Shown one piece after another: positions 1 through 17,561 of a DNA stretch of 17,561 nt. This DNA comes from Candidatus Vampirococcus lugosii (GTDB taxonomy: Bacteria > Patescibacteriota > Gracilibacteria > Absconditabacterales > Absconditicoccaceae), in NCBI RefSeq assembly GCF_018420025.1, contig NZ_JAEDAM010000017.1, forward strand, positions 1 to 17,561, read 5' to 3'. The position numbers were made by a program, and so were the translations under genes. The notes beneath the pieces are model-generated. The model was not told the DNA's origin, did no database searches, and was given only the letters and a program-made list of their open reading frames with translations. Each line of letters starts with the position of its first letter. Position 1 is the first letter of the stretch.

Positions 1-454
1 ATATTACTTTATCATATTCATCTATCAATACTACTACCTGCTTTCCTGTTTTTTTGTATATTTCTTTTAACAAATATCATAAATTTATACTTTTTGTAAA
101 ATCATTTAATTCATATATTTTATCTTCTATATATATATTCAAATTATATTTTATAAATTCTTCTACATCTTCAAATTTATTATAACTTGCAAAACTTATA
201 TACACTACTGGATTTGTTTCTTCAAAATTTCGTTTATTATAAATATATGTATTTTGGAATAATTCTTTTTCTCACATATACAAATATTTTATCATTGATA
301 ATGTCAACGATTTCCCAAATCTTCTTGGTCTAGACAAAAAATAATATTTATTACTTATCAATAAATTATGTATTGTTTTAGTTTTATCTACATAGTAACT
401 ATTCCTTGTTATCAACTCTCTAAAATCTTGTATTCATATCGCTATTTTTTTCAT
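1..454 (-). CDS. AAA-ATPase-like domain protein (PF09820-type, normally fused to a PD-(D/E)XK nuclease domain); 3' end runs off the window
   Basis: Minus-strand ORF from the ATG at 452-454 to the window edge. Table-25 translation MKKIAIGIQDFRELITRNSYYVDKTKTIHNLLISNKYYFLSRPRRFGKSLTLSMIKYLYMGEKELF... matches the family N-terminal signature (IGIQDF..L....YYVDKT, then F.SRPRRFGKS/T). The Gly in IGI is a TGA codon. Confidence 0.8.
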
Positions 455-550
455 CTCTTTATTTTTTTAATATTACTAAATCTCTTTCATTATATTTTTT
501 TCTTTACCAAAATCAACATTTTTTCCTCGCTCACGGGTGAAATTATATTT

Positions 551-1576
551 TTAAAGTTTCAATATTCTATTTTCAGAAATTACATATAAAAAATCATCTT
601 TAGAAATAATATAATTTTTATTATAATATATATTATTATCTTTATAATTTCTTATTCATATAATATTAACATCTTCTTTTAAATAATTACCTATCAATTC
701 CCATAATTGTTTACCAGTCCATTTTTCATCTAATTCTACTTGATAAATTTCTTTACCAAATCTATTGTCTAATAATTCATATATAATATCACTAACATTA
801 TCAGTTAATGATCTTACAAACAATCTATGTCATATTAGATTAGAATTTATAACTTTATTTACTCAAGCTTTTTGAAATAAAATAATATTTTTATCATCTT
901 TTATTTCGGATAATATATATATTTTTTCGTTTTTTATTCTAATATTCATAATATAAGCCAAAGTATTTTTATCTGCTTGATCATTATTTTCAGATAATAT
1001 TATAAAATTTTTGGCATTTGTTATATTAGACTTATATAAAGATTCATCATTTTCAGGACTACCAGCTACAAAATAAACATCTATTCATTCTCATTGTAAA
1101 TTCAAAATACCATTAGGTATTTTATCTAAATTTGATAAAAAAACTATTTTAGTCTTATTTTCATTATAGAGTTGTCTTATTATGCTATAAGTACTATATT
1201 TTGCTTCTCAATATACAATACTATGATTTCAAAAATTTATAGATAAAGTTCAATTCATTTTTTTTTCATTATTTGTAAATAATATATTTGTAATTTTTAT
1301 AGCTATATCTCAAATTATTCATAAAGTCAAAAGAATATATATCATAGCTAAAAACTGTCATAAATATGTTATAGGATATTTATCTCAATATCATATAGTT
1401 GTAGATGTAATAAAAGCCCACCATAAAATATCCCACCAAGAAGAAAAATATTCATTATTTCATTTTTCAACTAAATATATTAATATAACTAATAAAAACA
1501 TAATAAATAATATAGAAAAAACAGTTTTATTAGTTTTAATCTTATTTCAAATATTTTTAAGTAATACAAAAATCAT
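551..1576 (-). CDS. Two-TM potassium channel with a C-terminal RCK/TrkA_N-like domain (MthK-like)
   Basis: 341 aa, length divisible by 3, first ATG after an in-frame TAA. The N-terminal TM helix is followed by a pore region [22 protein letters not shown]. Its canonical T-x-G-Y-G-D filter has both glycines encoded by TGA (1382-1402). The cytosolic part HSIVYGEAKYSTYSIIRQL...VYFVAGSPENDESL resembles an RCK domain. The gene starts 21 bp after the dnaX stop. Confidence 0.9.
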
Positions 1577-1597
1577 TAGTAAAAATTACTATATAAA

Positions 1598-2848
1598 TTA
1601 ATCAATTTTTATTAAATCAATTTTAATTTCAATTTCTTTATTAAAAATTTTATTCAATATTTTTTTTAATACTTGTAAATTTTTTTCGTTTGTAATTACT
1701 GCATATTGAAATTCATTTGACACATTCATATGTAGATATCAATTTTGAAAAGATTGAATACTTGAATACCTTTTCAAAGCTGTTTTTAAAGAAGTAGAAT
1801 CAATATTTTGAACTATTTTTTCAATTAAATCATCATTTTTATCTATTCATTCATATTTTGTTGTAAAAAATTTAGATAACTCTTTTTTGTAAAGAATAGT
1901 ATTTATAGGATAAATTTTGGAATCTTTAATAATATTTATCATACAATCAGATAATTTAGTATAAAGTTCTTGATCTTCCAAAAAATGTTCATCACTATAT
2001 ACAATTATTTGTTTTGCAAAATCTATCAAATCTATTCATCAATTAGAAATTTTTTGTAATAATTCAAAACTAGATTTTAAATCTAAATTTTTAATATATT
2101 CAATAAATTCTATAATTGTAGAATTTCAAACAATTCATAAAAATTTAATAACATTATCTTCAGTAATTTTTTCAAAAAAGTTTATTTGTTCCAAATACTT
2201 AATTGAATCTCTCATAGCTCAATCAGAATTTTGTGCTATCAAATTTAAAGCTTGTTTATCATAATTATATCATTCTTGCTCACAAATATAAGATAATCTT
2301 GCAGATATATCATCTATATTTAATTTTTTAAAATTAAATACTTGACATCTAGAAACAATAGTATCTTTTATTTTATTTATTTCAGTAGTAGCTAATATAA
2401 AAAATAAATATTCAGGTGGTTCTTCCATTATTTTTAATAATGCATTAAAAGATGAGCTTGAAAGCATATGTACTTCATCTATAATATAAACTTTTTTCTT
2501 CAAAACAGAAGGTGGATAAAAAGCTTTATCTATAATTTCTTTTCTTATATTATCTACTTGTGTGTGAGATGCAGCATCTATTTCTACAAAATCTATATTC
2601 TTATTTTCATTTATACTAATACAAGAAAAACATTTATTACAAGGATTTCAATTTTTAGGATTTTGACAATTAACTGCCTTTGCCAAAATTCTAGCAACAC
2701 TAGTTTTTCAAGTTCATCTAGATCAAAAAAATAAATAATTACTGATTAATTTTTTATTTATTACTTGATATTGCAATATATCTATAATATGTTTTTGATT
2801 TACTACCGTATCAAAATCTCTGGGACGATATTTTATATATAATGACAT
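1598..2848 (-). CDS. dnaX: DNA polymerase III subunit gamma/tau (short form, 416 aa)
   Basis: MSLYIKYRPRDFDTVVNQKHI; Walker A FGSRGTGKTSVARILAKAVNC (three Gly = TGA); Zn module CNKCFSC; KVYIIDEVHMLSSSSFNALLKIMEEPPEYLFFILATTE; IVSRCQVF; SDGAMRDSIKYLEQ. The standard-code ORF 2270..2503 is an internal fragment of this gene. Confidence 0.95.
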
Positions 2849-2886
2849 AAATTATTTATTTATAAATAAAAAAACTATATATAAAC

Positions 2887-2914
2887 TATATATAGATTTT
2901 ATTCTTTTTTTCAA
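2887..2914 (-). promoter_or_regulatory. Candidate sigma70-like promoter for dnaX (TTGAAA, 16-nt spacer, TATATA) inside a recurring AATTGAAAAAAA motif
   Basis: The minus strand reads aaaTTGAAAaaaagaataaaatcTATATA. The TTG lies 66 nt upstream of the dnaX ATG. The same motif and spacing recur upstream of the sufD-like gene. In DNA this AT-rich, such hexamers also occur by chance. Confidence 0.25.
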
Positions 2915-3064
2915 TTTATTATTTATTTATTATTTATATTTTAAATAAATTAATTTATAAATAATATTCATTTTTATTTTTATTTTTCAAAAAATTATTT
3001 ATTAATTTTAATATACAAAACCAAATAAAAATTAGTTTAAATATTTAATTTACTATAATAAATT

Positions 3065-3298
3065 CTATTTACCACCAAAAGAACCTCATCATCGTGAAGA
3101 ACTTGAAGAACTTGAAGAATAATTTCTACATGTTCATACACAAGGTCAATAACTTGTAGAATATATCCAATCTATATTTGCTTTTCATGTTTTCATATCT
3201 ATTTGTTTAGATATTGGTTCAGGACTTTTTCCATAACTTATAAATCATATAACAGACCCCATAACTATACTTACGAAGAAAAGTATATAAATACTCAT
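3065..3298 (-). CDS. Small (77 aa) membrane-anchored or secreted protein with a Cys pair and a poly-Ser/Gly tail
   Basis: MSIYILFFVSIVMGSVIGFISYGKSPEPISKQIDMKTGKANIDWIYSTSYGPCVGTCRNYSSSSSSSSRGGGSFGGK. The ATG lies one base after the stop of the upstream gene, which suggests translational coupling. The N-terminus is hydrophobic. No family recognised. Confidence 0.55.
3096..3120 (-). repeat. 9-bp tandem repeat (gaagaactt x about 2.8) encoding the poly-Ser run of the 77-aa protein
   Basis: The plus strand reads gaagaactt gaagaactt gaagaat. On the coding strand this is (AGT TCT TCA)n. Confidence 0.7.
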
Positions 3299-3299
3299 T

Positions 3300-4754
3300 T
3301 TATTCATTTAATTTTATATTATCTAGTAAATAATTTTTTATTATACCTCCACTATATGGATATTTTTTATTTCATATATAAATATCTCATTTTTTATCAT
3401 TATTATTGAAATAATTTATATTATTTTTATATTTTTCAAATTCATTTAATATTTTTTTATCTTCTTCAGTTTTTATAGAAAATTTTATTCAACTTATATC
3501 TTTAAATTTATTTTTTGTTCAACCATAATCATATTTTTTTTCTCAATCTGGTAATTTTAATATATTATTTTTATCAAAACTTATTTTATAATTTCAATTA
3601 TCTTGATTTTTAAATGAATATTCTTTTGGTCATATAAAAAAACTTAAACTTAAATATGCGAATAAAGCAGATAAAATTAAATTAAGTACAAAATATAATT
3701 TTATATTTTTTATTTTAAATTTAATATATAATACACAATAAGTAACAATAAGTATTAAGAATGATATAATCGGAGATATTCGTATAAGAAAAAGAGAAAG
3801 ACATATAACAACAATACTGGATATAATTATTAAATTATTTTTAATATCTTTTAAATTTAATAAGTTGTTTAATGGCTCATAACTATAAGACACTTCATTA
3901 TATTTATTTAAATATACTTTTTTTCTTTCATAAATTCAAACCTCTTTTTGTGTTCAAGAGGATTCTTTTTCAAGAATATAATCTTTTCAAGAATACGAAA
4001 AATAATAAAGAATAACTTCCTCTCAAATAGTATATGATTTAGTATTTTCTCAATAAATTTTTTCAACTTTAACTTGATTAATTTCATCTATAGTAATATC
4101 TCATTTATTAGTTTTTATATATCAAGAATTTATTTCTTGTATATCAAAAATAGGAATTATTTTCCAACTAAGTTCTGTTTCATCTTTTTTTCAAACATTC
4201 CAATATGCTCTTGATTCAGAAAGATAATTTATTTCTCAAGTTATATCTACAAGCAAATATTCATTATATTCCAAACCTCACAACTCATCCCCTTCTTTCC
4301 ATTCTCATTTATAATTAACTACAGAAGATATAGTATAATTCCTAGATTCTATATCTATATTTTTTCACACTCAAACATTATCAAGAAAAATTGATTTTAT
4401 ATTATGTTGTTGCCAAACGAATTTTGTTCAACAACTTTCACAAGCAAATTCAAGCTGTTTAGTTTCTCAATTTTTGTAATCTTGATAAATTTTTTTTACA
4501 TTTTCATTCATTCTCAAATAATTTCAACAACTTGTACATTGTATAGCTTTTCATCATATTTTTACTTTTCATTCTCTTTGTGAGTATTCTCATCCTTGTG
4601 AATCTTTACAAATGTTTTGATACATTTGTTTATATTTTTTTAGATATGGACTATCAGGTTCTTCTTTTTCTAAGGAAACTAAAAGATTTTGCATCTTATT
4701 GCAATCTTTATTTACATAAGCATCATATAAATCTTTTAGTATTGAAGAACTCAT
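3300..4754 (-). CDS. Membrane protein: N-terminal C4 zinc ribbon, two DUF4178-like beta modules, a TM segment, and a C-terminal domain of unknown function
   Basis: 484 aa, length divisible by 3. Zinc ribbon: IQCTSCGNYLRMN...LEFACESCGTKFVW. The modules YTISSVVNYKGEWKEGDELGGLEYNEYLLVDITGEINYLSES and YTIGEEVILYYFSYSGKDYILEKESSG resemble the DUF4178 pattern. Hydrophobic stretch: LIIISSIVVICLSLFLIRISPIISFLILIVTYCVLYI...LYFVLNLILSALFAYLSLSFFI. It sits directly downstream of a DUF350 gene, a known pairing. The DUF4178 assignment is from memory of the family and was not searched. Confidence 0.65.
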
Positions 4755-4781
4755 AAAATTAAAAATTAAAAATATTAAATA

Positions 4782-4991
4782 TTATCAGTGTATAGCAGCA
4801 GCTATTATTATAGCAATAGATATAAATAAACATCAAATTATAATTCATAAAGATACATTTTCATCTTCTATCAATTCTTTATGTAAAGACCAAGGAGTTA
4901 CTTTATCAAGTACGATTATTATTGTTACAAAAATTAATATTCAAATAAATATATAAACTAAACTTCATATTAAAACATTTGTGTCTAACAT
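4782..4991 (-). CDS. DUF350 (YjfL-like) small integral membrane protein
   Basis: 69 aa: MLDTNVLIGSLVYIFIGILIFVTIIIVLDKVTPWSLHKELIEDENVSLGIIIGCLFISIAIIIAAAIHG. This matches the DUF350 layout: a TM helix, then (D)xxTPxxLxxEIxExxNVAxxI, then a second TM helix ending AAAIH. Confidence 0.8.
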
Positions 4992-5055
4992 TATTTATAT
5001 AATTAATAAATTAAAAGTGTATATTCATTATAAATATTTTTTATTATTTATCAAA

Positions 5056-6003
5056 TTATTTTTGATTTTTTCTTAATTTATTAAGTTTATTTAATTTAAA
5101 ATAGCGAGCTAATTTATTTCATATACTTAAAACAAATCAATCATTATTTTTTATTTTACAAGTATCAAATATACAAATCACTTTTCAAGTATTGGAATTA
5201 CTTATTATATGTTTTCAATTTCAAAATCCTACAAATATTAAACCTTCATTTCATATACTTTTAATATTTCATATATTATTAAATACATATTGTTTTCAAG
5301 TATTTCAACTATTATTTTGATATCATTCATTATCACTATTGTCTTGTAATCATTTATTTCAAACATTATATTGTATTCATAAATTTACACTATTATTTTG
5401 TTCTCAAGAATTTGAAAAATTATATTGTTCTCAATTATTATAACTATTATTCTGTTCTCAAGAATTTAAAGCATTATATTGTTTTCAACAATTAGAACGA
5501 TTATTTTGTTTTCAAGAATTAGATTTATTATCTTGTAATCAATAATTAAAATCATTTTCTTGAATTCAACAATTAGCTACAATAAATTGATTTCAATTAT
5601 TTCAAATATTATATTGAACTCAATTATTTCAATAAATATGTTGAACTCAATTATTTCAATCATTATGTTGAATTCAATGATTAGCAATAATATATTGAGT
5701 TCAATGATTGTCAATATTATATTGTGTTCAATTATTATTTTTATTTATTTGTAATCAATAATTTAAAGAATTGTATTGTTCTCAATCATTTTCAAAACTG
5801 TATTTTCTTCAATAATTACATCTATTAATAAGTTTTGATTCAGACCAATCAGAATTATTTTTAAAATATTTTTTTTCTTGTTTATCTTCTTGACTTTCTT
5901 CATTTTCTTCATTTTCTTGAAGAACTAAACATATACTATAACTAAAATCCTTTTCATCAAAAATATCTAAATTTTCACATTCATTAAATTTTGTAGTTTC
6001 CAT
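5056..6003 (-). CDS. Nonapeptide-repeat protein (consensus G-x-Q-x-N-x-x-N-x, 21 units) with an acidic N-terminus and a basic C-terminus; no recognisable family
   Basis: 315 aa, length divisible by 3. N-terminus: METTKFNECENLDIFDEKDFSYSICLVLQENEENEESQEDKQEKKYF (this is the standard-code ORF 5809..6003). Repeats follow, for example GTQYNIDNH GTQYIIANH GIQHNDGNN GVQHIYGNN GVQYNIGNN ... GEQNNSYNN GEQYNFSNS GEQNNSVNL GIQYNVGNK. Tail: ...KLARYFKLNKLNKLRKNQK. No signal peptide or TM helix is evident. Confidence 0.75.
5245..5811 (-). repeat. 27-bp coding tandem repeat array (21 units, diverged): TGA nnn CAA nAT AAT nnn nnn AAT nnn
   Basis: Plus-strand tca (a minus-strand TGA) occurs at exactly 27-nt spacing at 5269, 5296, 5323 ... 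5782, 5809, with no exceptions (21 in-phase occurrences checked by coordinate). Confidence 0.9.
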
Positions 6004-6154
6004 AAATATGTAATTATATAGTAAAATTATAATAAAATTTATATAATTAAAAAAAATAAAATGTCAATAGATAAATATTATTTTTATATTTTCTATAAAA
6101 GTTTTTAAATAAATTTACTATAAGTCAAATAAAAAAATATATTATATAAAATAA

Positions 6155-7029
6155 TTAATTCATATTGTGCCAAATTTTTCAATTTGATAAAACAAAATAA
6201 GATTTTATATTATTTTTTTCACAAAATTCTTTTCATAAATCAAATCACATACTTAAAATACTTGTAGATAAAGAATCAGTTTTGTATGCAAATTTGTCCA
6301 AGACACTAATAGTTATTATATCAAATTTTTGATTTTTTTCTCAAGGAGTTTTTATATGATGAAATTTATTTCAATTATTATTTTTTCGTTTTCTTATATT
6401 AATTCAAGAACTTGATAAAGAACAATTTGTCAAAGAAAAGTTTATTAATTTATTATTTTGAAGTCAATTTGGAACTGAAACTATCCAATTTTTTCAATTT
6501 TGATTTTTCCCAGATACATATATATCACCACCAACATTAACTAAAAATTATTTACATTATTTAATTTCAAAAATTTAGCTATCAAATCAGACAAATATCA
6601 TTTTCCTATTGCACCAAAATCTAAATTCATACCATCTTGCAACACTACAGTATCTCAAAATATTCATATTTTATTAAAATCTAAATTTTCTTTATTTTTT
6701 TCAAAATCAAAATTATTTATTTCCCAAGATTTTCAATATCATATATTTGACAAATTTACCAAAGGATTAAAAAATCAATTAGTAAAATCATAAATTTCTT
6801 TAGATTTAATCAAAAGTCATAAAAAATCTTGATCTATTTTTAATTTTTTTTCATTATTTAATATAGACAAAAGAGAATTTGGAATAAATCTAGAATATTT
6901 TTTTTCAAAATCACTAGAAATTTGATAAACTTTTTTGATAAGATTATCAGCTTCTTTTTTGTCAGAAACAATTAAACTAATATGTAAAATAGAACCAAGT
7001 CATTTGAATACATATTTAAAAATTTTCAT
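6155..7029 (-). pseudogene. apbE: FAD:protein FMN transferase (ApbE family) split by a 1-nt frameshift in a T5 run. This could be a true pseudogene, a slippage-rescued gene or a homopolymer assembly error
   Basis: Frame A (7029 to 6541) reads MKIFKYVFKGLGSILHISLIV...FNPLVNLSNIGYG...LDFGAIGKGYLSDLIAKFLKLNNVNNF and ends at TAG. Frame B (6547 to 6155) reads FLVNVGGDIYVSGKNQNGKNWIVSVPNG...NKFHHIKTPGEKNQ...DKFAYKTDSLSTSILSMG. Adding one T to AATAATTTTTAG gives a continuous ...NNFLVNVGGDIY, the canonical ApbE motif. Confidence 0.8.
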
Positions 7030-7084
7030 AATTATAAATTAAAGCTTTTTATAAATAAGTTTTTATTAAAATTAAATAATTTAT
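7029..7084. repeat. 56-bp inverted repeat, copy A (partner at 14352-14407)
   Basis: taattataaattaaagctttttataaataagtttttattaaaattaaataatttat. Its reverse complement recurs at 14352-14407 with 55/56 identity. Copy A abuts the apbE start codon. Confidence 0.9.
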
Positions 7085-7282
7085 ATATAATAAATATTAT
7101 TAACAATTCAATATTAAAAGTAATTTATATTTTTTTATTTATTTGATATATCAATATTTTTTAAAATAATTTGAAACTTTGCTAGAAAAGATTATATAAG
7201 TTCTATAGAATACATAAAACAAATATCTGTTCTAATTAATTTTCAATTACGACAAATAAAGACTTGATTTAAGAAAATGTAT

Positions 7283-7317
7283 AAAAAAAACTACAAATTG
7301 TAAATTATTTGTAGTTT
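7283..7317 (-). terminator. Rho-independent terminator after the ftsL-like gene
   Basis: The stem ctacaaat (7291-7298) pairs with atttgtag (7307-7314) around an 8-nt loop. On the minus-strand transcript it is followed by U8 (plus-strand A8 at 7283-7290). It lies 17 nt downstream of the stop at 7331-7333. Confidence 0.65.
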
Positions 7318-7330
7318 AAATTTGAAATTA

Positions 7331-7723
7331 TTAGTTATTACTTGTAAGTTTAACTTCAGTATTTATATAAATAATTCTATCATTTACAGTAAGTCATTGA
7401 GGTTGTTTTCATACATTATTTTGTTTAAATCATGAATTATCTTGTATATCTTGCCAAACTTTTTTTTGTGCTCTTAATACTTCCAACTGTACCAAACTAT
7501 GAGAGAATTTTTCTTCTTCCAAAATCCCCATCTCTTGTCTCAAAAAATATCATTTAGTTGAACTAATATTTACAAAGAACAAATACGACAATATTACAGA
7601 TACTAATATCATAGATATTGTTACAAGTTTCAATTGATTTATTAATCTACGATTTTTTTTAACATTATTTTTAATTTCTATATATTTTTTTGATATACTT
7701 TCAACAAAAACAAATTTATTCAT
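7331..7723 (-). CDS. FtsL-like bitopic cell-division protein (tentative)
   Basis: 130 aa: MNKFVFVESISKKYIEIKNNVKKNRRLINQLKLVTISMILVSVILSYLFFVNISSTKGYFLRQEMGILEEEKFSHSLVQLEVLRAQ... It has a single TM helix followed by a coiled-coil-like stretch, and starts 20 bp downstream of rsmH, the classic ftsL position. The call rests on architecture and synteny only. Confidence 0.55.
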
Positions 7724-7743
7724 TTATTACATAAATATTAATA

Positions 7744-8616
7744 TTATAAAGCCTTTATTATTCTCAATTTTGCACTTCTAGAAGCATTATTTTTTTGTAT
7801 TTCTTGATAAGAAGGTTTTATTACTTTTTTGTTTATGAGTTGAAAGTTTCCAATTCTAGATTTATCCTTAAATTTATATTTTACTATTCTATCTTCTATA
7901 CTATGATAAGTTATTATGAAACATTTTCATCCAGAATTCAAATATGAACCAAAATTATCCAAAAATTTTTCCAAATGTCAAAGTTCATTATTTACTACAA
8001 TTCTAACACATTGAAAGACTACAGATATTTTTTTAGTTCACAATCAAATATTTTTTAATAAATTAACAAAATCAAATGTAGTAGATAATTTAGATTTTTT
8101 CCTTTCTCAAATTATACAATCTGCCATATAATCAGCAAATTTTGTAGTAAAATCTCAATATTTATTAAAAGCTTGAGAAATATCAGATCTATTTCAATTA
8201 TTCAAAAAATCGTAAGCAGAATATTGCGAACTACTATCAAATCTCATATCTAGATTTCAATCTTTTTTTATAGAAAAACCTCTATCTGACAATTTGAAAT
8301 GATCCATATTTACTCATAAATCAAGTAGTATTCAATCAAATTTTTTATCTCATATGTTTTTGGAAATATTTTCCAAATCTGAATAATTATTATTTTGAAA
8401 AATTATTTTATCTCAAAATGAAGTTAAATAAGATTTAGCTTTTTTTAACATTTGTGCATCTCTATCAACCGCAACAAATAATGTATTATCAAAATTTCAA
8501 TTTGAAAAAAAATACTCTATATGTCATCAGTGTCAAATAGTTCAATCCATAAATACAGACATATCCTCTGATAAATTTTCTAATATTTCTTTTGCTAAAA
8601 CTGGAATATGTCTCAT
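7744..8616 (-). CDS. rsmH: 16S rRNA (cytosine1402-N4)-methyltransferase
   Basis: 290 aa: [15 protein letters not shown]...FMDGTIGHGGH (four TGA glycines)...AVDRDAQML...GILLDLGVNMDHF...[16 protein letters not shown]...[14 protein letters not shown]...[18 protein letters not shown]...[14 protein letters not shown]. Confidence 0.95.
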
Positions 8617-8950
8617 TTTAAATAAATTAATCTAAATAATAATTATACAAATAATTTGAAAATAAAACCTCAAAAACATCATAGTTACTATATACTCAAT
8701 AAATTTAAAAAGTCAAAACATTATAAAAAAATAATAATTGACTTTTTATTAAAAGTATTTATTTTATATTTAAAGTCATTTTTCATAAAATTACTAACTT
8801 AAAGAAAAAAAAATTAAGGTTAAAATACTTTTTTGAGATGAATAATTTTATTTTAAATATAATTAAAAATATTTTAAAAACTATATTTAATTTGTTTTTT
8901 TAATAAAAATAATTATAAAACTAGATATTTTATATGAATAAATTTTGTTG

Positions 8951-10519
8951 ATGAAAAAAAAATATTATTTTATATTAATTTGATTGTTTTTTTTATGGTG
9001 AATTTTTTTGAGATTTTATAATTTATGATGAGCAAGTTTTTGGATAGATGAATGATATAGTAGTATTACTTCTTATTATTCTTTACAAAATAATTTTTTG
9101 CCTTTATTGCAATCTGGTAGATATGATTTTAGTCAATATTTTTTTACTTTATCTCAAAATTTATCTTTTTCTATATTTTGATATAGTGATTTAAGTGCTA
9201 GAATTCCATCTTTTGTTTTTTGAATATTACTTATGATTTTGAGTACTTTATTTGCATATGAACTACTTAAATGACATAAATATAAATATATTTGAGTTTT
9301 ATTTATAAGTTTTCTATCTTATTTTTCTACTTGGCAAATTATTTGGTCTAGAGAAGCTAGATTTTATGAATTACTTGCTCTTATTTTGTTGTTTTGAGTA
9401 TATTTATTATATAAATTTGAAATATCTAAAAAATGAATTTATTTTTTGATTTTTTCAATAATAGCTTGAATAGGAAGTATTTATCATCCTTTTTTATTAT
9501 CGCTTTTTGCTATATGATGAATTTATTTAATATATTTTTTTGTCAGTAAATTTATTATGTCAAATTATGATAAAACTATTATTAAAAAAAATTTAAAATA
9601 TATTTTTATGATATTTTGATGATTTTTATTTTATTTATCAATTACTAGTTTATTTAAATATATCACAAATTGATGAGTTGATATTTGAAATATTGTACCA
9701 AATACTTTTGATTTACCACAAAATTTAAAAGAAAATTATATTAATTTTTATAATAATTTATTATTAGAAGAATTATGAATTTTGCATATATTTTTTATAT
9801 TTTGATCTTTTTATTTAGCTTATATTAGAAAATATTTTTATTTGATAATATTTTTATGAACATTTTTGATTAATTTTTTTGTTATTTCTCAAAAATGAAT
9901 AATGCTTCATTCTAGATATATGTATCATATATTTAGTATTATAACTATATTTGGATCTTATATTTTTTTTATTTTTATAAGTTATTTATATGACAAAAGT
10001 ATTTGATTCAAAAATAAAATATATAAAATATTGTTATATATATTTATAATATTTTTAAATTTTAGTTTATTTTATAGTTTCAATATTAATCTACTACCTA
10101 AAAATGTTTATTATATAGATTATACTTCACCAAAACCCAATTTTAAATCAGCTTATAATTTTGCAAAAAATAATTATCCTAATACCAAAATAATATCATG
10201 AATGCCACAATTATGTGTATGGTACAATATAGAAAATAAAAATATTTGTCAATATTCTATGAGAGTTAATCTTACTTGAAAAAAATCAGCTAATGAAAGA
10301 CTTATACAAGAAACAAATCATAATTATACTGCTATTCCTTATATAAATAACATATCTCAAATATGAAATAATTTATTTATACTTGATGATTTATCTTTAA
10401 GAATGAGTATTAATAAAGAAATAATTGACTATGTATTAAATAATTGTAATAAAATATTTGAAGATATTTGAAACGAAAAAAAATATAATTACATTTGAGT
10501 TTGGAAATGTAAAAATTAA
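8951..10519 (+). CDS. GT-C fold membrane glycosyltransferase, family 39 / ArnT-PMT-like
   Basis: 522 aa. The frame was checked codon by codon along every line. MKKKYYFILIGLFFLWGIFLRFYNLGGASFWIDEGYS carries the GT39 signature (R.yNLg..s.w.DE). About 10 or more TM helices follow, then a soluble C-terminal domain. Confidence 0.8.
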
Positions 10520-10550
10520 GTTAATAAAAAATAAATAATATTTTAAAAAA

Positions 10551-11144
10551 TTAAATTTTGATAATATATATTTCTTTACTTTCTTTCCTCGTAGATTTTG
10601 GTTTAAAAGTTTTTATTGATTTTGATCAATAAATCTTTTTTAGATCAGACAAAAATTCTTCAAATCAAGGTCCCATAAATATTTTTATTACAAATTTTCA
10701 TTCATATCAGAGATATTTTTTGTAGATAGGTAAAGTTTTTTCTATAAGAGCTATAGATTTGATAGCATCCAAGTCTTTAATTCAAGTAGTATCTGGAGCC
10801 ATATCAGATATGATAATATCAAATTTTTCAATATTAGATTCTTTCAATATTTTTTGTACATTATCAAAATCGGAAATATCTTGTTTGTATGTAAAAACAT
10901 TTTCCAAGTTTAATGAAACTTCTTTAAGATCAAATCAAATTATTTTGTAATTTAAATTATTGTTTATCTTGTTCCAAGTATATTGTATCCAACTTCATGG
11001 TGAACATCATATATCCAAAACTTTTTTAATAGTTTTATCAAAAAGATTAAATTTTTGATCAATTTCTTCAAGTTTAAAAACACTTCTAGCTTTATATCAA
11101 GATTTTTTAGCTTTTTTGAAATAATAGTCGTATGGATTATACAT
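10551..11144 (-). CDS. rlmE: 23S rRNA (uridine2552-2'-O)-methyltransferase (FtsJ/RlmE)
   Basis: 197 aa: YYFKKAKKSGYKARSVFKLEEIDQKFNLF...VLDIGCSPGSWIQY...IIISDMAPDTTGIKDLD...GKFVIKIFMGPGFEEF...KTFKPKSTRKESKEIYII. These are the canonical FtsJ motifs. Confidence 0.9.
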
Positions 11145-11164
11145 ATATATTTTTAAAAAATAAA

Positions 11165-11575
11165 TTAATCATCAAGTCACAAATCATCAAAATCATCAAT
11201 TTTTCAATCATTTATATATTTGTGAATTGCATTCCTAGTAGCCAAAAGTCAAAGCAATACTGCCCTATTTCTTCTAGAACTAACTTGCATTCATAATTCT
11301 TCTCTCATAAAATCTAAATCCCATGCAAGAATTTCTTGCAAATCAATTCATTGAATTTCTTCAGCAAGTAAACTTACTGCTGTAGTAGTTATCATAGAAG
11401 TATCTCAAGTAAAACTAAATTCTTTTATTTTATTATTTTCTATTTTCAAAAAAACATTTATTCAATCACCACAAACTGGATTTCATTCTTGATAAGAAAT
11501 ATCAAAATCTTTCATTTCATAATTATTAACTGGATTGCTTGAATAATCTTGAATCAATGTAGCAATATCAAACAT
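11165..11575 (-). CDS. IscU/SufU (NifU N-terminal) family protein retaining only the first of three ligand cysteines
   Basis: 136 aa: ...IQDYSSNPVNNYEM...GNPVCGDGINVFLKIENNKIKEFSFTGDTSMITTTAVSLLAEEIQG...VSSRRNRAVLLGLLATRNAI. NPxCGD is intact. The G-x-G-C-x-I-S position reads GDTSMIT, and the R-x-x-C-A position reads RNRAVL. Confidence 0.7.
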
Positions 11576-11602
11576 AACATTTTATTAAAAAAATAAATCT
11601 AA

Positions 11603-12271
11603 TTAATTATTGATATAATCAAAAAATTTATTTGAAATATTTTCATTATTTAAATTTTCATTAAAATTATTTATATAAGAACTAATAATAAGATTATAAT
11701 AAGATTTTAAATCTATTCATTTGGAACAAATATAAAATTTATCAAATTCATTTAATTTTGAAATACTTGCTCAATGACTTGCTTTTACATCATTACAAGA
11801 AACATTTAATGTAGGAGTAATATTGCTCGTTCAATTATCTGTCAAAAACACTGTTTTTTGATTCAAATATCATTCTGATTTATAAGAATCAAAATCAATA
11901 AATACATTTCAACTAATATTTATTACTCATCAATCATCACATAATCATATAATTTCAGTATTTGAATAAATTTCTTTATTTAATAAATTAATAGATAAAT
12001 TTCAATTTATTTCTTCTTTATTTTTGGAAAAAGAAAGAGATTTGATATTTACACAAGATTCTCAAGATAATATATCTATTTTTATATCAAAATTATTTTT
12101 TCATACAATTCATAAATTGTAATTTATATTAGCTGGACAAGATATTTTTATATATCTTTTAGTTTCATTATTTACCAAAAAATCTATAATTAAAATATTT
12201 TTTCAATCCAAAACTTCAATATATTGCTCAGAATTGTTTATATAATAAATTCAATCTTCAAAAATTTTCAT
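11603..12271 (-). CDS. Short SufB/SufD-family protein (C-terminal beta-helix region only)
   Basis: 222 aa. TPTLNVSCNDVKASHGASISKLNEFDKFYICSKGIDLKSYYNLIISSYINNF matches the SufB/D C-terminal signature (P.L.i..ddVkcsHGatvg.ld.e.lfYL.sRGi....A..l). It is about half the usual SufD length. Confidence 0.7.
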
Positions 12272-12309
12272 ATTTTTATGAAATTATTTTCTAAAAATAC
12301 TAGTAAATA

Positions 12310-12337
12310 TTTATAAGAATTATATTTTTTTTTTCAA
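12310..12337 (-). promoter_or_regulatory. Candidate promoter for the sufD-like, sufU-like, rlmE operon (TTGAAA, 16-nt spacer, TATAAA)
   Basis: The minus strand reads taaTTGAAAaaaaaaatataattctTATAAA. The TTG lies 66 nt upstream of the ATG at 12271. It is embedded in the 20-mer T10-CAATTAAAAA (12325-12344), which recurs identically at 14897-14916. Confidence 0.3.
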
Positions 12338-12429
12338 TTAAAAATAAATAGATTTTTTGATTTTAAAACTTGATTTATTTAAAAAATTTATTAATAATAA
12401 GTTGTTTATTATAAAATAATTAATTATAT

Positions 12430-13017
12430 ATGAAAATATATTTATTTTTCAAAAAATATTATGTAGCTATGTGATATAAATTAGCTATGTTTTTATCAAA
12501 ACAAAAAATGCATCCAAATACTGCTAGTTTAATTTCTATATTTATTATTTTTCCTATGTTTTTTTTTATAGATAATTATATTTATAATAATTTATTATTA
12601 ACTATATATTTATTTATTGCCATAAATATAAAACTTATTTTAAATGCAATTGATTGAATAATTGCTAGAGATCAAAATATAAATACAAAATTTTGAATGT
12701 TTTTAAATGTATGAACGGATATATTACCTGATTTATATATCATATATATAATTTTGAATAAATTATGAGTAGATATTTTTTTAATTTATTATATATTATT
12801 GATAATTATTTTTTATTTTATATTAGAAATATTATTTATATATTTGTATAATAAACAAAATATTTTTATATGATGAAAAGAATCTAGAACATTTTTTTAT
12901 TTATTAATATTAATTGTATGATATTTTAATTTTAATTATAATATTTTATTATATTTTTATATATTTATAACTATTTTACATAATGCTTGATTTTTTATTA
13001 AAAAATATAGAAATTAA
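12430..13017 (+). CDS. CDP-alcohol phosphatidyltransferase family protein (divergent motif)
   Basis: 195 aa from the first ATG of the ORF; alternative starts are at 12469 and 12487. HPNTASLISIF is followed by LNAIDGIIARDQNINTKFGMFLNVGTDILPD. This fits DG-x2-AR-x8-G-x3-(D)-x3-D, but Asn occupies two of the four Asp positions by my manual alignment. Multiple TM helices. Confidence 0.7.
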
Positions 13018-13693
13018 TTTACTTATTTTATTTTTTATTATAGCTTTTATTTGTTTTGTAAGTATCAAAAATGATTATATTCATGAAAAAATTAAATGAT
13101 GGATATATATAATATTATTTAGTTTTTTGTTATTTATAAACAATATTACTTTAATATTATCTTTAATCATTATTTGAACGGTTGCAATTTATGAATTTAT
13201 AAAAGTTTTGAAGTTTTCATTGATAAAAAATATAATATATTGATCAATATTTTTATTTTTATTAATATGATTTTTGTATTTTATGTATATGAAAGTAAAT
13301 TTATTTTTTTATTTGTTTATTATTTTATCTTTTTCTGATATAATAGCTTATTTTGTTTGAAAATGAATAACATGGAAAAAATGATTTACTAAACTGAGTC
13401 CAAATAAATCACTTAGTTGAGTTATAGCTCAAATATTTTTTATATTTATAATACTTATAAATATACTTGTATTTATTTTGGAAATAAATATTTTTTATTC
13501 TTTATTTATATCATTATTTATTTGATTTTTGGGACCAATATGAGATTTGATTGAATCATATTTTAAAAGAAAATCTTGAATAAAAGATATGGCTAATTAT
13601 ATACCTTGACATTGATGATTATTAGATAGAATTGATTCTATTTTTTTGAGTGCATGAATTGTATGACTTATTTATTTTTTTATTAGTTTTTAA
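12983..13693 (+). CDS. cdsA: Phosphatidate cytidylyltransferase (CDP-diglyceride synthase)
   Basis: 236 aa: ...SFSDIIAYFVGKGITWKKGFTKLSPNKSLSGVIAQ...[44 protein letters not shown]. This is the canonical CdsA C-terminal signature. It overlaps the upstream gene by 35 nt in another frame. Confidence 0.85.
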
Positions 13694-13695
13694 CT

Positions 13696-14340
13696 ATGTT
13701 TTTCCCAGATATAAAAAGAAATGATATATGGCAAAATTGACACAATAAATTATGTAGTATAGAAAAAAATTGAAATAAATTTATTATTGAAAATATAAGA
13801 GATTTTGATCATGAAAATAATGAATTTAATTATATAAATAAAATATATGATTTAGAAAATTTGGAAAAAATTATATTACATTCTTGTCCTTTTTGATTTA
13901 AAAAATTATTTTCACATTTGATAATAGAATTTTGTTTTTCATGAGAAAAAAGTTTATTTTTATCAGTAGAATCAAGAAGACAAGAATGAGAATGATTCTC
14001 TATAATTAAATGATGTTTTAGACATTATGGTTTGATATTTGTTTGGTGAACAAAAAAAGATTTAATACATTTAAGAACAAAAATAAGAAAAACAAAAATT
14101 GAAACTTATGAATTAATGTTTGATGATAAAAAAATGAAAGAATGATTTCTATATTTAATAGAAAAAACTAATTCTCTCATACAAAATCCTAAATATTATA
14201 ACTCATTTTTTTGTAATTGTGTAACTAATTTATATGATGTTTTGAAAATATATTCAAAAAAAAATATAAAATTTTCATCAAATATAATCTTTTCTAGCAA
14301 AGTTCCAAATTATTTAAAAAAATATTGATATATCAAATAA
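13696..14340 (+). CDS. DUF4105 (Lnb N-terminal domain-like) protein
   Basis: 214 aa: FIIENIRDFDHENNEF...SHLIIEFCFSGEKSLFLSVESRRQEGEGFSIIKGCFRHYGLIFVWGTKKDLIHLRT...ETYELMFDD...NPKYYNSFFCNCVTNL. This follows the DUF4105 pattern (vRNf.y...aHt.lsF.f....l.iSvE.R.e.ge.ys...g.fr.yeL.yv...e.D....Rtn...Y.L...P..Yn....NC.T). It starts 2 nt after the cdsA stop. Confidence 0.7.
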
Positions 14341-14351
14341 ATAAAAAAATA

Positions 14352-14407
14352 ATAAATTATTTTATTTTAATAAAAACTTATTTATAAAAAGCTTTAATTT
14401 ATAATTA
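14352..14407. repeat. 56-bp inverted repeat, copy B (partner at 7029-7084)
   Basis: ataaattattttattttaataaaaacttatttataaaaagctttaatttataatta is the reverse complement of 7029-7084 with one mismatch. It covers the last 11 sense nt, the stop codon and the 3' flank of the minus-strand gene 14394..14828. Confidence 0.9.
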
Positions 14408-14828
14408 AAGATAAAAAAATTATTAAAGCAAAAAAACTTAAGATACTATAAGACCAAATCTTAATAGATAATTTGTAGTATAACATTTTAGTTTCTTTAT
14501 CTATTGTGTCTTTACATCTATATTTAATTAATATAATATAAATTATACTTGCAACTAATAATGTAGTAATTAATGCACTTAATAATGTAGTAATTAATAT
14601 TTCTCATATTCATCAACTTAACTGTAAATCATTTAATAATATATTTAAAATGGGTAATAATATTATAGATAATAAATTTATTAATAATAAATCTATTATC
14701 GTACTTTTATAACTTAATTTTATGTTAAAAGTAATTAAATGTTTATTTTTAATTAAAATAATATTATAAAAAAAATAAATAAGTCAATTAATCAATAATG
14801 TTACTAAAATAAGTGGTATCTCTAGCAT
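14394..14828 (-). CDS. Hypothetical polytopic membrane protein (144 aa)
   Basis: MLEIPLILVTLLINGLIYFFYNIILIK...LLLINLLSIILLPILNILL...GEILITTLLSALITTLLVASIIYIILIKYRC...IWSYSILSFFALIIFLSLIIN. Length divisible by 3, about 4 hydrophobic helices, no family recognised. It contains a 24-bp internal duplication (LITTLLSA / LITTLLVA). Confidence 0.5.
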
Positions 14829-14880
14829 ATCATTTGTATTATTAATTAAATTTAAAATTCATTTGATGAATTATCAAATT

Positions 14881-14909
14881 AATATATAGTTTTTACTTTT
14901 TTTTTTCAA
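14881..14909 (-). promoter_or_regulatory. Candidate promoter for the 144-aa membrane protein gene (TTGAAA, 17-nt spacer, TATATT)
   Basis: The minus strand reads taaTTGAAAaaaaaaagtaaaaactaTATATT. The TTG lies 81 nt upstream of the ATG at 14828. It shares the identical 20-mer with the 12325-12344 site. Confidence 0.3.
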
Positions 14910-15085
14910 TTAAAAAGCCATAATTTTTTATTGTCAAATACAATAATATTTATTGAAATAAAAATCTTCAAATCATAATTCTCATTATTACTAAATATCA
15001 AGATTTAGATAGAATCATTACTCAAGATAAATTTATTTTAGTTTGACTCAAATTCTTAATCTAAAAATTTTGTACATAAAATATA

Positions 15086-15118
15086 AAAAAATCTCTGTTT
15101 TTGAAACAGAAATTTTTT
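15086..15118 (-). terminator. Rho-independent, bidirectional-looking terminator after gdh
   Basis: The stem tctgttt (15094-15100) pairs with aaacaga (15104-15110) around the loop ttg. It is flanked by an A-run upstream and T6 downstream, which can extend the stem. On the minus transcript the hairpin is followed by a U-run. It begins 28 nt after the gdh stop. Confidence 0.65.
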
Positions 15119-15138
15119 AAAATTGTATTTTTATTAAA

Positions 15139-16378
15139 TTATTTTCATTTGATATTTATTGCTTGCAATATTCTATCCAAAGATAAAATATAAGAAGAAT
15201 CTCTCAAAGAGATAGATAATTTACTTGACATATCAAAAACATCTTTTGTTGATTTTTCCATTTGTTTTTTAAGTTTTTGATCAACTTCAATTTCTTCCCA
15301 ATAATAATTTGCATTATTTTGTACTTGTTCAAAATAACTAACCAAAACTCAACCAGCATTTGCAAGTATATCTGGAATTACTGTAATTCATTTTTTTTGA
15401 TAAAATATTATCAGCTTGCATATTTATAGGTCCGTTTGCCAACTCCAATACAATATTTGATTTAATATTATCAGCATTTGATTCTGTTATTTGATTTTCT
15501 AATGCAGCAAGTATCAAAATATCTACATCTAATTCAAGCAATTCTTCATTTGTCAAAATATTAACATTTTCATATTCTACTACGGATTTTTTATTATCTT
15601 TTATAGATTTTATTAAATCAAGATTTAATCATTCTTCAGAATATATTCATCATTTGCTATCAGATATAGCTGTTAATTTAGCTCATGAATCAGTTAAATA
15701 TTTAACTATATTAATACCAGCATTTCAAGCTCATTGAATAGCAATTTTTTTTCATTTCAAATCATAATTTTTTAATTCCAAGATTTTATTAAGAACAAAA
15801 AATCATCATCTACTTGTGGCTGTATCTCTACCAATAGATCATCAAACTTGTATAGGTTTTCATGTAAAACTTCAAGGATTATTATTATTTGATAATTTAC
15901 TATATTCATCCATCATCCATGCCATTATTTGAGGAGTAGTTCAAACATCTGGAGCTGGAACATCGTAATCAGGTCATAAATATCTTGATAGTTTTCTTAC
16001 ATATCATCTTGAAAGTTTTTCTAATTCATTATCAGAGAGACTTTTAGGATCTACAATTATTCATCATTTAGCACCTCATAAAGGAATTCAAACTAAAGCA
16101 GTTTTCATACTCATCCATACTGATAAAGCTTTAGTTTCATCCATAGCAACTCATTGATGAAATCTTATTCATCACTTATATGGACCTCTTACATTATTAT
16201 GTTGTGATCTATATCATACAAAATTTTTTACTTCTCAGTTATCCATTTCAACATTAATATTTACTTGTATAACACGATCTGGATAAAGTATATATTCTAA
16301 ATCATTTTTTGTAAATTTATTTTCCAAATATTCAAATGATTTTTTTATTTGATTTTGTGCATTTTCAAAAGAAGACAT
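15139..16378 (-). pseudogene. gdh: Glutamate dehydrogenase (Glu/Leu/Phe/Val dehydrogenase family) interrupted by one extra base in an A8 tract. This could be a pseudogene, a slippage-rescued gene or an assembly error
   Basis: The span is 1240 nt (3n+1). Upstream frame: MSSFENAQNQ...RSQHNNVRGPYKGGIRFHQ...MSMKTALVGIPLGGAKGGIIVDP...APDVGTT...IAIQGAGNAGINIVKYL...LELANGPINMQADNILSKK. After the run TCAAAAAAAATGA (plus-strand T8 at 15391-15398) the homology continues one frame over: [33 protein letters not shown]...LQAINIKGK. The standard-code ORFs 15338..15556 and 15145..15345 are the two sides of the break. Confidence 0.85.
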
Positions 16379-16470
16379 ATTTTTTTATTTTAATATATAA
16401 ATGTGATATTAATATTATCAAATTTAAACTAAAAATATATAGCAAATATTAAATAAAATATTTTTTTATT

Positions 16471-17276
16471 TGTAGTTGAAAAATAAGTTGAAACTCATCT
16501 TTATAAACAAAAAATAGTTAGCTTTGTAGTGGAGAATATTATTGTATTTTCTCTTGAGATTATAATTTTTTTCATTATATTAAATATAATATTTATTATC
16601 TTTTATTATTTTAAGTAATAATAATCATAATATGTTTATTAAAAAAGTACTCATAAATATAATTGAAAAACTTATATCACTCATCATATTGTTGAATCTT
16701 TTAGAAATAAAGATATAAAAAAAGTAAAACATAATGTTTCACATGGATACAAAAAACTACCTTACATAAAAGACGATAAAGAAAAAATTAAAGAATATTT
16801 ATTTGTATGAATTGATGATTTTAGTAGAGAACTTTATGTTCATATTGCAACAGACAAAACCTAATCTTCAGCGACAGAAGCTCTAGCACAATTTATTGAT
16901 GAATGTCCTTATATTATTGAATGTCTATATACAGATAATAGTAAAGAATATAAGTGAACACCAGATCATGAACTTATGAAATATTGTCTTGAAGCATGAA
17001 CAAAGAAAAAATACACAAAAGTAAAAAGACCACAAACAAATGGTAAAGCTGAAAGAGTAATAAGAACATTAATGGATATGCGACATAGTAAAGAAACATT
17101 TATTTCAAGAGAAAATAGAAAAAAGTCTTTAAAAAGGTTTGTAAATCGATACAATTGTGTTAAACTTCATAAATGAATTGATAATAAAACACCATATGAA
17201 ATTATAGATGAGTTTTATCACTGAAAATAAAAAAACTGTAAACAACTCTACCATTTCTTAAAAATTTTGAAATACA
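16471..17276 (+). mobile_element. Decayed, internally shortened IS481-family insertion sequence relic (boundaries tentative)
   Basis: It contains the degraded DDE transposase listed below. The putative terminal inverted repeats are TGTAGTTGAAAA (16471-) and the reverse complement of the right end, TGTATTTCAAAA (-17276), matching at 10 of 12 positions and starting TGT as in IS481 elements. The roughly 0.8 kb length is shorter than an intact IS481 element. No convincing target-site duplication is visible in this AT-rich flank. Confidence 0.4.
16734..17230 (+). pseudogene. IS481-family DDE (rve) transposase, C-terminal catalytic part only, with one frameshift and one in-frame TAA
   Basis: MFHMDTKK is followed by a frame change at the A6 run 16751-16756. 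Then LPYIKDDKEKIKEYLFVGIDDFSRELYVHIATDKT, TAA (16862-16864), SSATEALAQFIDECPYIIECLYTDNSKEYKG...KRPQTNGKAERVIRTLMDM...RFVNRYNCVKLHKGIDNKTPYEII. The D, D and E positions (hMDtKK, TDNsKEY, TNGKAER) are recognisable. The N-terminal HTH region is missing, and the upstream frame carries two further TAA codons. Confidence 0.8.
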
Positions 17277-17297
17277 AATTATTTTAAAAAAAATTAG

Positions 17298-17325
17298 TTG
17301 ATATTTTAATAATTTTTGTTATAAG
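17298..17325 (+). promoter_or_regulatory. Candidate sigma70-like promoter for mnmA (TTGATA, 16-nt spacer, TATAAG)
   Basis: agTTGATAttttaataatttttgtTATAAGat. The -10 element ends 44 nt upstream of the mnmA ATG. Hexamer matches of this kind are weak evidence in AT-rich DNA. Confidence 0.25.
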
Positions 17326-17369
17326 ATATCTAAAACTATAAATCGTATATTTAAAATGAATTAACATTT

Positions 17370-17561
17370 ATGAAAAAAATATTGGTATGACTTAGTTGAT
17401 GAGTAGATAGTGCAGTAAGTGCTTATTTATTACAAAAAAAATGATATGATGTAACTGCTTGATTTATGATAAATTATATGGCAGATGATAATTCTTGTCC
17501 TACTAAACAAGATATTCAAGAAGCAAAAAAAGTTGCTGAATATTTATGAATTAATTTTTTT
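17370..17561 (+). CDS. mnmA: tRNA 2-thiouridine(34) synthase, N-terminal 64 codons (continues beyond the window)
   Basis: MKKILVGLSGGVDSAVSAYLLQKKGYDVTAGFMINYMADDNSCPTKQDIQEAKKVAEYLGINFF. The PP-loop SGGVDS has TGA glycines, followed by the typical GY.V.G.fM.nw....C motif. Confidence 0.9.

Follow-up and report, generated by a model that had tools for sequence, protein, structure and literature searches.

Which genetic code governs a stretch of DNA that yields only short fragments under the standard table? We addressed this question for a window of 17,561 bp, the whole stretch analysed here. This window covers an entire contig from the predator Candidatus Vampirococcus lugosii, a member of the Absconditabacteria (SR1), and has a guanine-plus-cytosine (GC) content of 18.8%. 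In this window TGA is read as glycine, TGG as tryptophan, and TAA and TAG as terminators, and the overall best explanation, which we hold to be almost certain, is that UGA is a glycine sense codon in the V. lugosii contig with UAA and UAG as sole terminators. The reassignment is already known in V. lugosii: the organism, the UGA→Gly change and the annotation have all been published for this sequence, and the genome paper (Moreira et al.) states UGA→Gly and used Prodigal with table 25. Our additions, evidence on CGA→Trp in V. lugosii together with annotation corrections, are of modest value.

The source was established from proteins translated with Gly at TGA. RsmH, DnaX, the K+ channel and two small membrane proteins (g04 and g10) are identical to V. 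lugosii GenBank/RefSeq proteins, and these exact matches bear out the assignment to the SR1/Absconditabacteria lineage that an earlier reading of the DNA, made from the sequence only, had proposed. Among the matches listed, which come from species-representative genomes, the nearest DnaX relatives are metagenome-assembled genomes (MAGs) of Absconditabacterales/SR1, with at most 73% identity over the conserved segment.

TGA as a sense codon restores contiguous genes

The sequence-only reading had claimed that the standard table gives short fragments only, that TGA as sense gives about 20 contiguous genes, and that TGA is the commonest glycine codon, and our counts agree on each point. Under code 11, only two start-to-stop open reading frames (ORFs) reach at least 85 amino acids (aa), at 87 and 88 aa. 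Stop-to-stop ORFs of at least 60 aa add up to 2,692 aa with code 11 and to 8,939 aa once TGA is sense, the longest spanning 525 codons; freeing TAG in place of TGA brought no comparable gain in ORFs over the whole window. With TGA as sense, about 22 non-overlapping ORFs emerge (Table 1).

Codon usage was counted in a set of 21 genes comprising 4,995 codons. Glycine is written there as TGA (276), GGT (27), GGA (13) and GGG (5), with GGC at 0, so that TGA makes up 276 of 321 glycine codons (86%) and GGN the remaining 45 (14%), and TGG occurs 34 times. Of the complete genes, 16 terminate with TAA and 3 with TAG, a result that follows partly from the construction of the ORF set. Both triplets are shunned in the coding frame, with 16 TAA and 3 TAG in frame versus 299/360 and 121/92, respectively, out of frame. 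The encoded proteins also align to the ends of their family profiles, as RsmH does over profile positions 3–307 of 309.

If TGA were still a stop, the window would have to consist of pseudogene fragments or be an assembly artefact. The lack of anything longer than 88 aa under code 11 fits this idea, as do the two frameshifts and the insertion-sequence (IS) remnant that the contig contains. However, it would leave 276 in-frame TGA codons in 21 ORFs that align full length with known families, together with the strong exclusion of TAA and TAG from the coding frame. Independent assemblies of two read sets, moreover, agree in sequence, and both frameshifts are homopolymer errors with no decay. We therefore give this explanation next to no chance.

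Conserved columns identify glycine as the captured amino acid

Every TGA was masked as X before the Pfam searches, so that no amino acid was presumed. Fifteen ORFs matched Pfam families under this masking, covering a PF09820 AAA-ATPase, a K+ channel with an RCK domain, DnaX, DUF350, ApbE (in two pieces), RsmH, RlmE/FtsJ, NifU_N/SufU, SufBD, CdsA, Lnb_N and glutamate dehydrogenase (GDH). An IS481-type integrase and MnmA were identified from alignments with homologs or Protein Data Bank (PDB) structures rather than from the Pfam scan.

At conserved positions of these families, TGA falls on glycine. In the Walker A motif of DnaX, the three TGA columns hold Gly in 53/53, 52/53 and 53/53 homologs from standard-code organisms, and a TGA in the sensor motif is Gly in 53/53; at these positions the recoded DnaX relatives carry GGN in some cases and TGA in others. 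Two TGA codons of the AAA-ATPase align with Gly in 107/117 and 104/117 homologs. Two solved GDHs have Gly at 19–21 of the 25 TGA columns and Trp at none, and all six TGA columns of MnmA are Gly in PDB 2der, including those of GMSGGVDS. RsmH, compared with PDB structures, has TGA where conserved columns hold Gly (DGTFGRGGH, DLGV and PGG) and where variable columns hold varied residues. Writing x for TGA, the K+ channel filter TTIxYxD aligns with TVGYGD of MthK, and PxHxxLLDRID of CdsA aligns with PGHGGMLDRID of PDB 4q2g.

The motifs that the sequence-only reading had quoted as carrying TGA at glycine are all present, as FFxSRxTxKTS in DnaX, DxTIxHxxH in RsmH, PLxGAKxx in GDH, PxHxxLLDRID in CdsA and LSxxVDS in MnmA. 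Its filter sequence is exact: the reverse complement of 1382–1402, on the minus strand, reads ACA ACT ATA TGA TAT TGA GAT. That reading had also proposed checking column identities at TGA positions, and the check returned Gly at conserved columns, neither Trp nor gene ends.

We quantified this pattern with a small Codetta-style tally of three genes (DnaX, the AAA-ATPase and the transposase), restricted to columns whose conservation among standard-code homologs was 70% or more. TGA fell on Gly in 11/11 conserved columns, as its reading as glycine predicts, and on Trp in 0/11. The controls on Arg columns behaved as Arg throughout (AGA 13/13, AGG 1/1 and CGT 1/1; 15/15 together).

The tally also bears on the proposal that TGA encodes Trp, the reading known as code 4 that Mycoplasmatales and a number of low-GC insect endosymbionts use. 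A GC content of 18.8% is typical of code-4 organisms, and public Logan gene calls translate these very genes with W at TGA. Yet no conserved TGA column (0/11) is Trp, whereas invariant glycines of Walker A, the K+ filter, PGHGG and SGGVDS are encoded by TGA. Trp would also reach about 6.2% of residues under code 4; with TGA as Gly, the Gly content is 6.4%. Code 4 is excluded, as the sequence-only reading had argued, because TGG occupies conserved Trp columns, as in GDH (QIMAWMMDEY) and MthK, and we assign TGA=Trp a vanishingly small probability.

Some observations weigh against glycine. At a minority of TGA columns, homologs vary and have residues other than Gly, as expected at non-conserved positions. 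Scans of the window for tRNAs and Rfam families gave no match, and no release-factor gene is found among its ORFs. Searches with ARAGORN of 27 relatives' loci (~330 kb) found no tRNA with anticodon UCA and no tRNA-Gly. The genome paper counts 38 tRNA genes in V. lugosii, without detail.

Decoding of TGA and its place among known codes

Glycine capture by UGA would involve a dedicated tRNA-Gly(UCA) decoding TGA and the absence of release factor 2 (RF2), both suggested by the published biology of the clade. Shulgina & Eddy give tRNA-Gly(UCA) together with RF2 loss as the expected signature of the UGA→Gly clade, and proteomics of a bacterium from the sister group BD1-5 (Hanke 2014) recovered 97 peptides unique to a UGA-Gly database versus 3 unique to a UGA-Trp database. 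TGA is the sole Gly codon with a single G/C, and an AT-rich mutational bias would thus make it the main glycine codon and leave GGN as a residue. The dominance of TGA among glycine codons (86%) is attributable to these two circumstances, because the contig is extremely AT-rich and no other Gly codon has so little G/C.

We compared the TGA share with that of 26 clearly recoded relatives, using a greedy non-overlapping ORF set. Across these relatives (GC 0.28–0.43), TGA accounts for 0.13–0.68 of Gly codons, and this share falls as GC rises (Spearman −0.62, p = 8e-4). The window stands at the end of the relatives' trend, with a TGA share of 0.86 at GC 0.188, a GC below the range of 0.21–0.53 quoted for Absconditabacteria and Gracilibacteria (Shulgina & Eddy). 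High TGA usage in code-25 bacteria has already been noted in the literature. The TGA share in the window is the extreme of a known trend driven by mutation bias and no new phenomenon.

The window differs in no respect of kind from code 25 as used in SR1/BD1-5. The two share in-frame TGA at conserved Gly, TGG as Trp, TAA and TAG as the only terminators, low GC and placement within the Candidate Phyla Radiation (CPR); what sets the window apart is its GC of 0.188 and its TGA share of 0.86, compared with a relatives' maximum of 0.68 (n=26). Code 25 (UGA→Gly) is said to have been described for Absconditabacteria/SR1 and Gracilibacteria/BD1-5 by Campbell and by Rinke in 2013. With code 4 of Mycoplasmatales, Entomoplasmatales and insect endosymbionts, the window shares a stop codon that was captured as sense in an AT-rich reduced genome and became a major codon. 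The captured amino acid is Trp there and Gly here, and the lineage of the window belongs to the CPR.

CGA as a probable tryptophan codon

Shulgina & Eddy 2021 (Codetta) predicted that Absconditabacteria reassign CGA and CGG to Trp. CGA occurs as six codons in the window (~12 per 10,000), at 232, 3094, 3782 and 6388 on the minus strand and at 17081 and 17147 on the plus strand. Among the triplets that the standard table assigns to Arg, AGA is the main one in the 21 genes (79), followed by AGG (7), CGT (4), CGA (4), CGC (1) and CGG (0); the two CGA codons of g21 come on top of these four.

Two of the six codons lie on columns dominated by Trp. The column of the AAA-ATPase CGA (232) is W in 94/117 homologs and R in 0, and all three V. 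lugosii PF09820 paralogs are annotated R at this column (80% Trp). The column of the transposase CGA at 17081 is W in 107/120 homologs and R in 11, and those 11 R sequences are the closest relatives; 8 of them show W at Gly columns, a mark of TGA recoding, and one is the V. lugosii paralog. Inspection of two such recoded relatives revealed that the R at the 17081 column is itself CGA, that the second site is CGA or CGG, and that AGA is the main Arg codon (14–16 per gene).

Of the other four codons, the transposase CGA at 17147 is on an aromatic column (F74/W19/Y13 among 120 homologs), the ApbE CGA (6388) aligns with L, F or Y of solved structures, and the g05 CGA (3782) is inside a hydrophobic helix. 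A homolog search for g04, which carries the CGA at 3094, returned only g04 itself and one W-mistranslated, gapped relative. On conserved columns, CGA falls on Arg in 0/3 cases and on Trp twice, versus 15/15 on Arg for AGA, AGG and CGT (Fisher p = 0.0012). CGT stays Arg, at K-Y-R-P of DnaX and P-x-R of GDH.

From these alignments we consider it probable that V. lugosii reads CGA as Trp, in line with the Codetta prediction for Absconditabacteria; a tRNA(UCG) of Trp identity would presumably decode it. The V. lugosii code as a whole is then likely to comprise three changes, UGA→Gly plus CGA and probably CGG→Trp, rather than table 25. The label 'code 25' given by the sequence-only reading accordingly stands for its TGA→Gly part and probably falls short in completeness, since CGA appears to encode Trp. 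If CGA is Trp, table 25 renders the six window CGA codons wrongly as Arg.

Some features of the data count against this assignment. CGG has no occurrence in the window, so CGA alone can be assessed, and of the six CGA codons two are decisive and two compatible with Trp. Two of the six, at 17081 and 17147, lie in the transposase pseudogene. Were CGA an ordinary Arg codon (plain code 25), its presence on Trp columns would reflect lineage-specific Trp-to-Arg changes or pseudogene decay. The small sample of six codons, and the fact that two of them fall within a transposase remnant interrupted by a stop, lend themselves to this alternative; the g04 context SSSS-CGA-GGG suits Arg, and both GenBank and RefSeq annotate R. 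The column statistics point the other way, as do the three V. lugosii PF09820 paralogs that keep 'R' at an 80% Trp column. The same Trp column of the transposase also carries CGA in two recoded relatives with intact genes. A change from TGG to CGA takes two substitutions, so its repeated occurrence by neutral decay is improbable, and CGA→Trp has been predicted for the clade by Codetta. On balance we regard plain Arg as unlikely.

The extended Absconditabacterales code predicted by Codetta and the window share the rarity of CGA, AGA as main Arg codon, CGT as Arg, and CGA on Trp or aromatic columns. They differ in that CGG is absent from the window and that the tRNA evidence of Codetta concerns the clade, not the window. 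V. lugosii is not named with a CGA/CGG reassignment in the searchable literature, and CGA→Trp in V. lugosii is probably a new member of the predicted pattern.

Frameshifts, a transposase remnant and database entries

Two genes in the window are split, and in both the split traces to the length of a homopolymer. GDH carries a 1-nt insertion in a T8 run (plus strand) at 15391–15398, in Logan contig L086 the run is 7 bases long and the gene, at 412 aa, is intact, and the GenBank entry is a shortened 346-aa product (MBS8121819). ApbE carries a 1-nt deletion in an A5 run (plus strand) at 6543–6547, where L087 has 6 bases and an intact 291-aa gene. Its halves match Pfam profile positions 2–151 and 152–265, and GenBank holds the 162-aa N-terminal piece only (MBS8121829). 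The Logan assemblies with intact GDH and ApbE derive from SRR13241708, and homopolymer length is the sole difference. Both frameshifts are errors in the deposited contig. We considered pseudogenes and programmed frameshift sites and rejected both, because the independent assemblies are in frame.

The IS481-like transposase gene (g21) lacks the N-terminal DNA-binding part and has an in-frame TAA (16862–16864) at a position where 114/120 homologs have Gln and relatives have CAA. It is truncated and has a stop on an invariant Gln column, and is therefore a remnant. TAA as a sense codon was rejected here, given that 16 genes end in TAA, that relatives have CAA and that the N terminus is missing as well. 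A partial paralog, 87% identical, is found on a different V. lugosii contig, 25 kb long.

The code used for translation differs among databases. GenBank proteins of V. lugosii were called with table 25. The Logan contigs L084–L087, which correspond to window positions 7133–14346, 14378–16493 and 4629–7058, have gene calls made with code 4, which wrongly store Trp at every TGA. Such Trp-for-Gly sequences are seen as spurious W at Gly columns in homolog alignments.

Gene content, repeats and assembly structure

Table 1 Genes of the window with TGA read as sense, with the evidence for each and its in-frame codons of interest.
Gene	Product	Position	Strand	Evidence	Codons
g01	AAA-ATPase_like PF09820, 3' end cut by contig end	2..454	-	Pfam E=6e-37	3 TGA, 1 CGA (232)
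g02	MthK-like K+ channel with RCK	551..1576	-	Pfam, MthK alignment	15 TGA, including both filter Gly
g03	DnaX (DNA polymerase III gamma/tau)	1598..2848	-	Pfam, homologs, identical to MBS8121822	12 TGA, 0 GGN
g04	Small membrane protein (UniRef name DUF4247)	3065..3307	-	ORF, identical to MBS8121823	6 TGA, 1 CGA (3094)
g05	Zinc-ribbon and transmembrane protein, no family	3300..4754	-	ORF, faint zinc-ribbon Pfam match	27 TGA, 1 CGA (3782)
g06	DUF350 membrane protein	4782..4991	-	Pfam E=5.9e-10	5 TGA, 0 GGN
g07	Nonapeptide-repeat protein	5056..6003	-	Tandem array, translation	32 TGA, 2 GGN
g08+g09	ApbE/FAD:protein FMN transferase, split	6155..7029	-	Pfam halves, PDB	16 TGA, 1 CGA (6388)
g10	FtsL-like small membrane protein	7331..7723	-	ORF, UniRef name 'cell division protein FtsL'	4 TGA
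g11	RsmH (16S rRNA m4C1402 methyltransferase)	7744..8616	-	Pfam E=2.5e-65, PDB, identical to MBS8121808	17 TGA
g12	Polytopic membrane protein	8951..10519	+	ORF, no Pfam match	29 TGA, 3 GGN
g13	RlmE/FtsJ methyltransferase	10551..11144	-	Pfam E=5.2e-37	9 TGA
g14	SufU/NifU_N-like Fe-S scaffold	11165..11575	-	Pfam	8 TGA
g15	SufB/D-like protein	11603..12271	-	Pfam	14 TGA, 0 GGN
g16	Membrane protein, no family	12430..13017	+	ORF	9 TGA
g17	CdsA (phosphatidate cytidylyltransferase)	12983..13693	+	Pfam, PDB 4q2g	16 TGA
g18	Lnb_N-domain protein	13696..14340	+	Pfam	10 TGA
g19	Membrane protein, no family	14394..14828	-	ORF	4 TGA
g20	Glutamate dehydrogenase (GDH), split	15139..16378	-	Pfam, PDB alignments, frames	28 TGA
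g21	IS481-like transposase remnant	16643..17230	+	120 homologs	6 TGA, 2 CGA (17081, 17147)
g22	MnmA N terminus, 3' end cut by contig end	17370..17561	+	PDB 2der	6 TGA

The nonapeptide-repeat gene g07 contains a tandem array (~5233–5880) of ~17–24 copies of a 27-nt unit encoding G-x-Q-x-N-x-x-N-x, and the Gly of every repeat is TGA. No Pfam family was matched by g07 or by the polytopic membrane protein g12; g07 may belong to the fibrous surface proteins that the genome paper names. A membrane cluster of three genes on the minus strand (3065–4991) is formed by the DUF350 protein, the zinc-ribbon/transmembrane protein and the protein named DUF4247.

A 7.1-kb segment that extends from rsmH to the Lnb_N gene is bracketed by an imperfect inverted duplication of ~130 nt (7029–7197 versus 14282–14407). 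The duplication consists of two blocks, ~57 and ~70 nt long, its left copy is interrupted by an insertion of 43 nt, and independent Logan contigs end exactly in its arms. The 7.1-kb segment may be invertible or rearranged, or its flanks may be just an assembly-breaking repeat. Over window positions 7133–14346 (7.2 kb), comparison with L084/L085 showed 12 substitutions, all transitions, in the SRR13241708 assembly and 1 in the SRR13241709 assembly; these could stem from whole-genome-amplification errors or from microdiversity between sorted consortia. Partial PF09820 AAA-ATPase genes, paralogs with 76–82% identity, lie at the ends of three V. lugosii contigs (window 2–454, and contigs of 14,747 and 13,301 bp), and this multicopy gene probably breaks the V. 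lugosii assembly.

Implications

The genetic code of this contig could be inferred from raw sequence alone, and a known phenomenon was called correctly; UGA→Gly brings no new biology here. For annotation hygiene, table 25 is probably wrong at CGA, GDH and ApbE are deposited in shortened form, and Trp-for-Gly entries contaminate homology searches. If CGA does encode Trp, every CGA in the deposited V. lugosii proteome would be mistranslated as Arg, including at strongly conserved Trp positions. At 18.8% GC, with GGN reduced to 14% of Gly codons and GGC unused in the contig, V. lugosii would, if this picture is true, stand at the furthest stage of UGA capture known so far.

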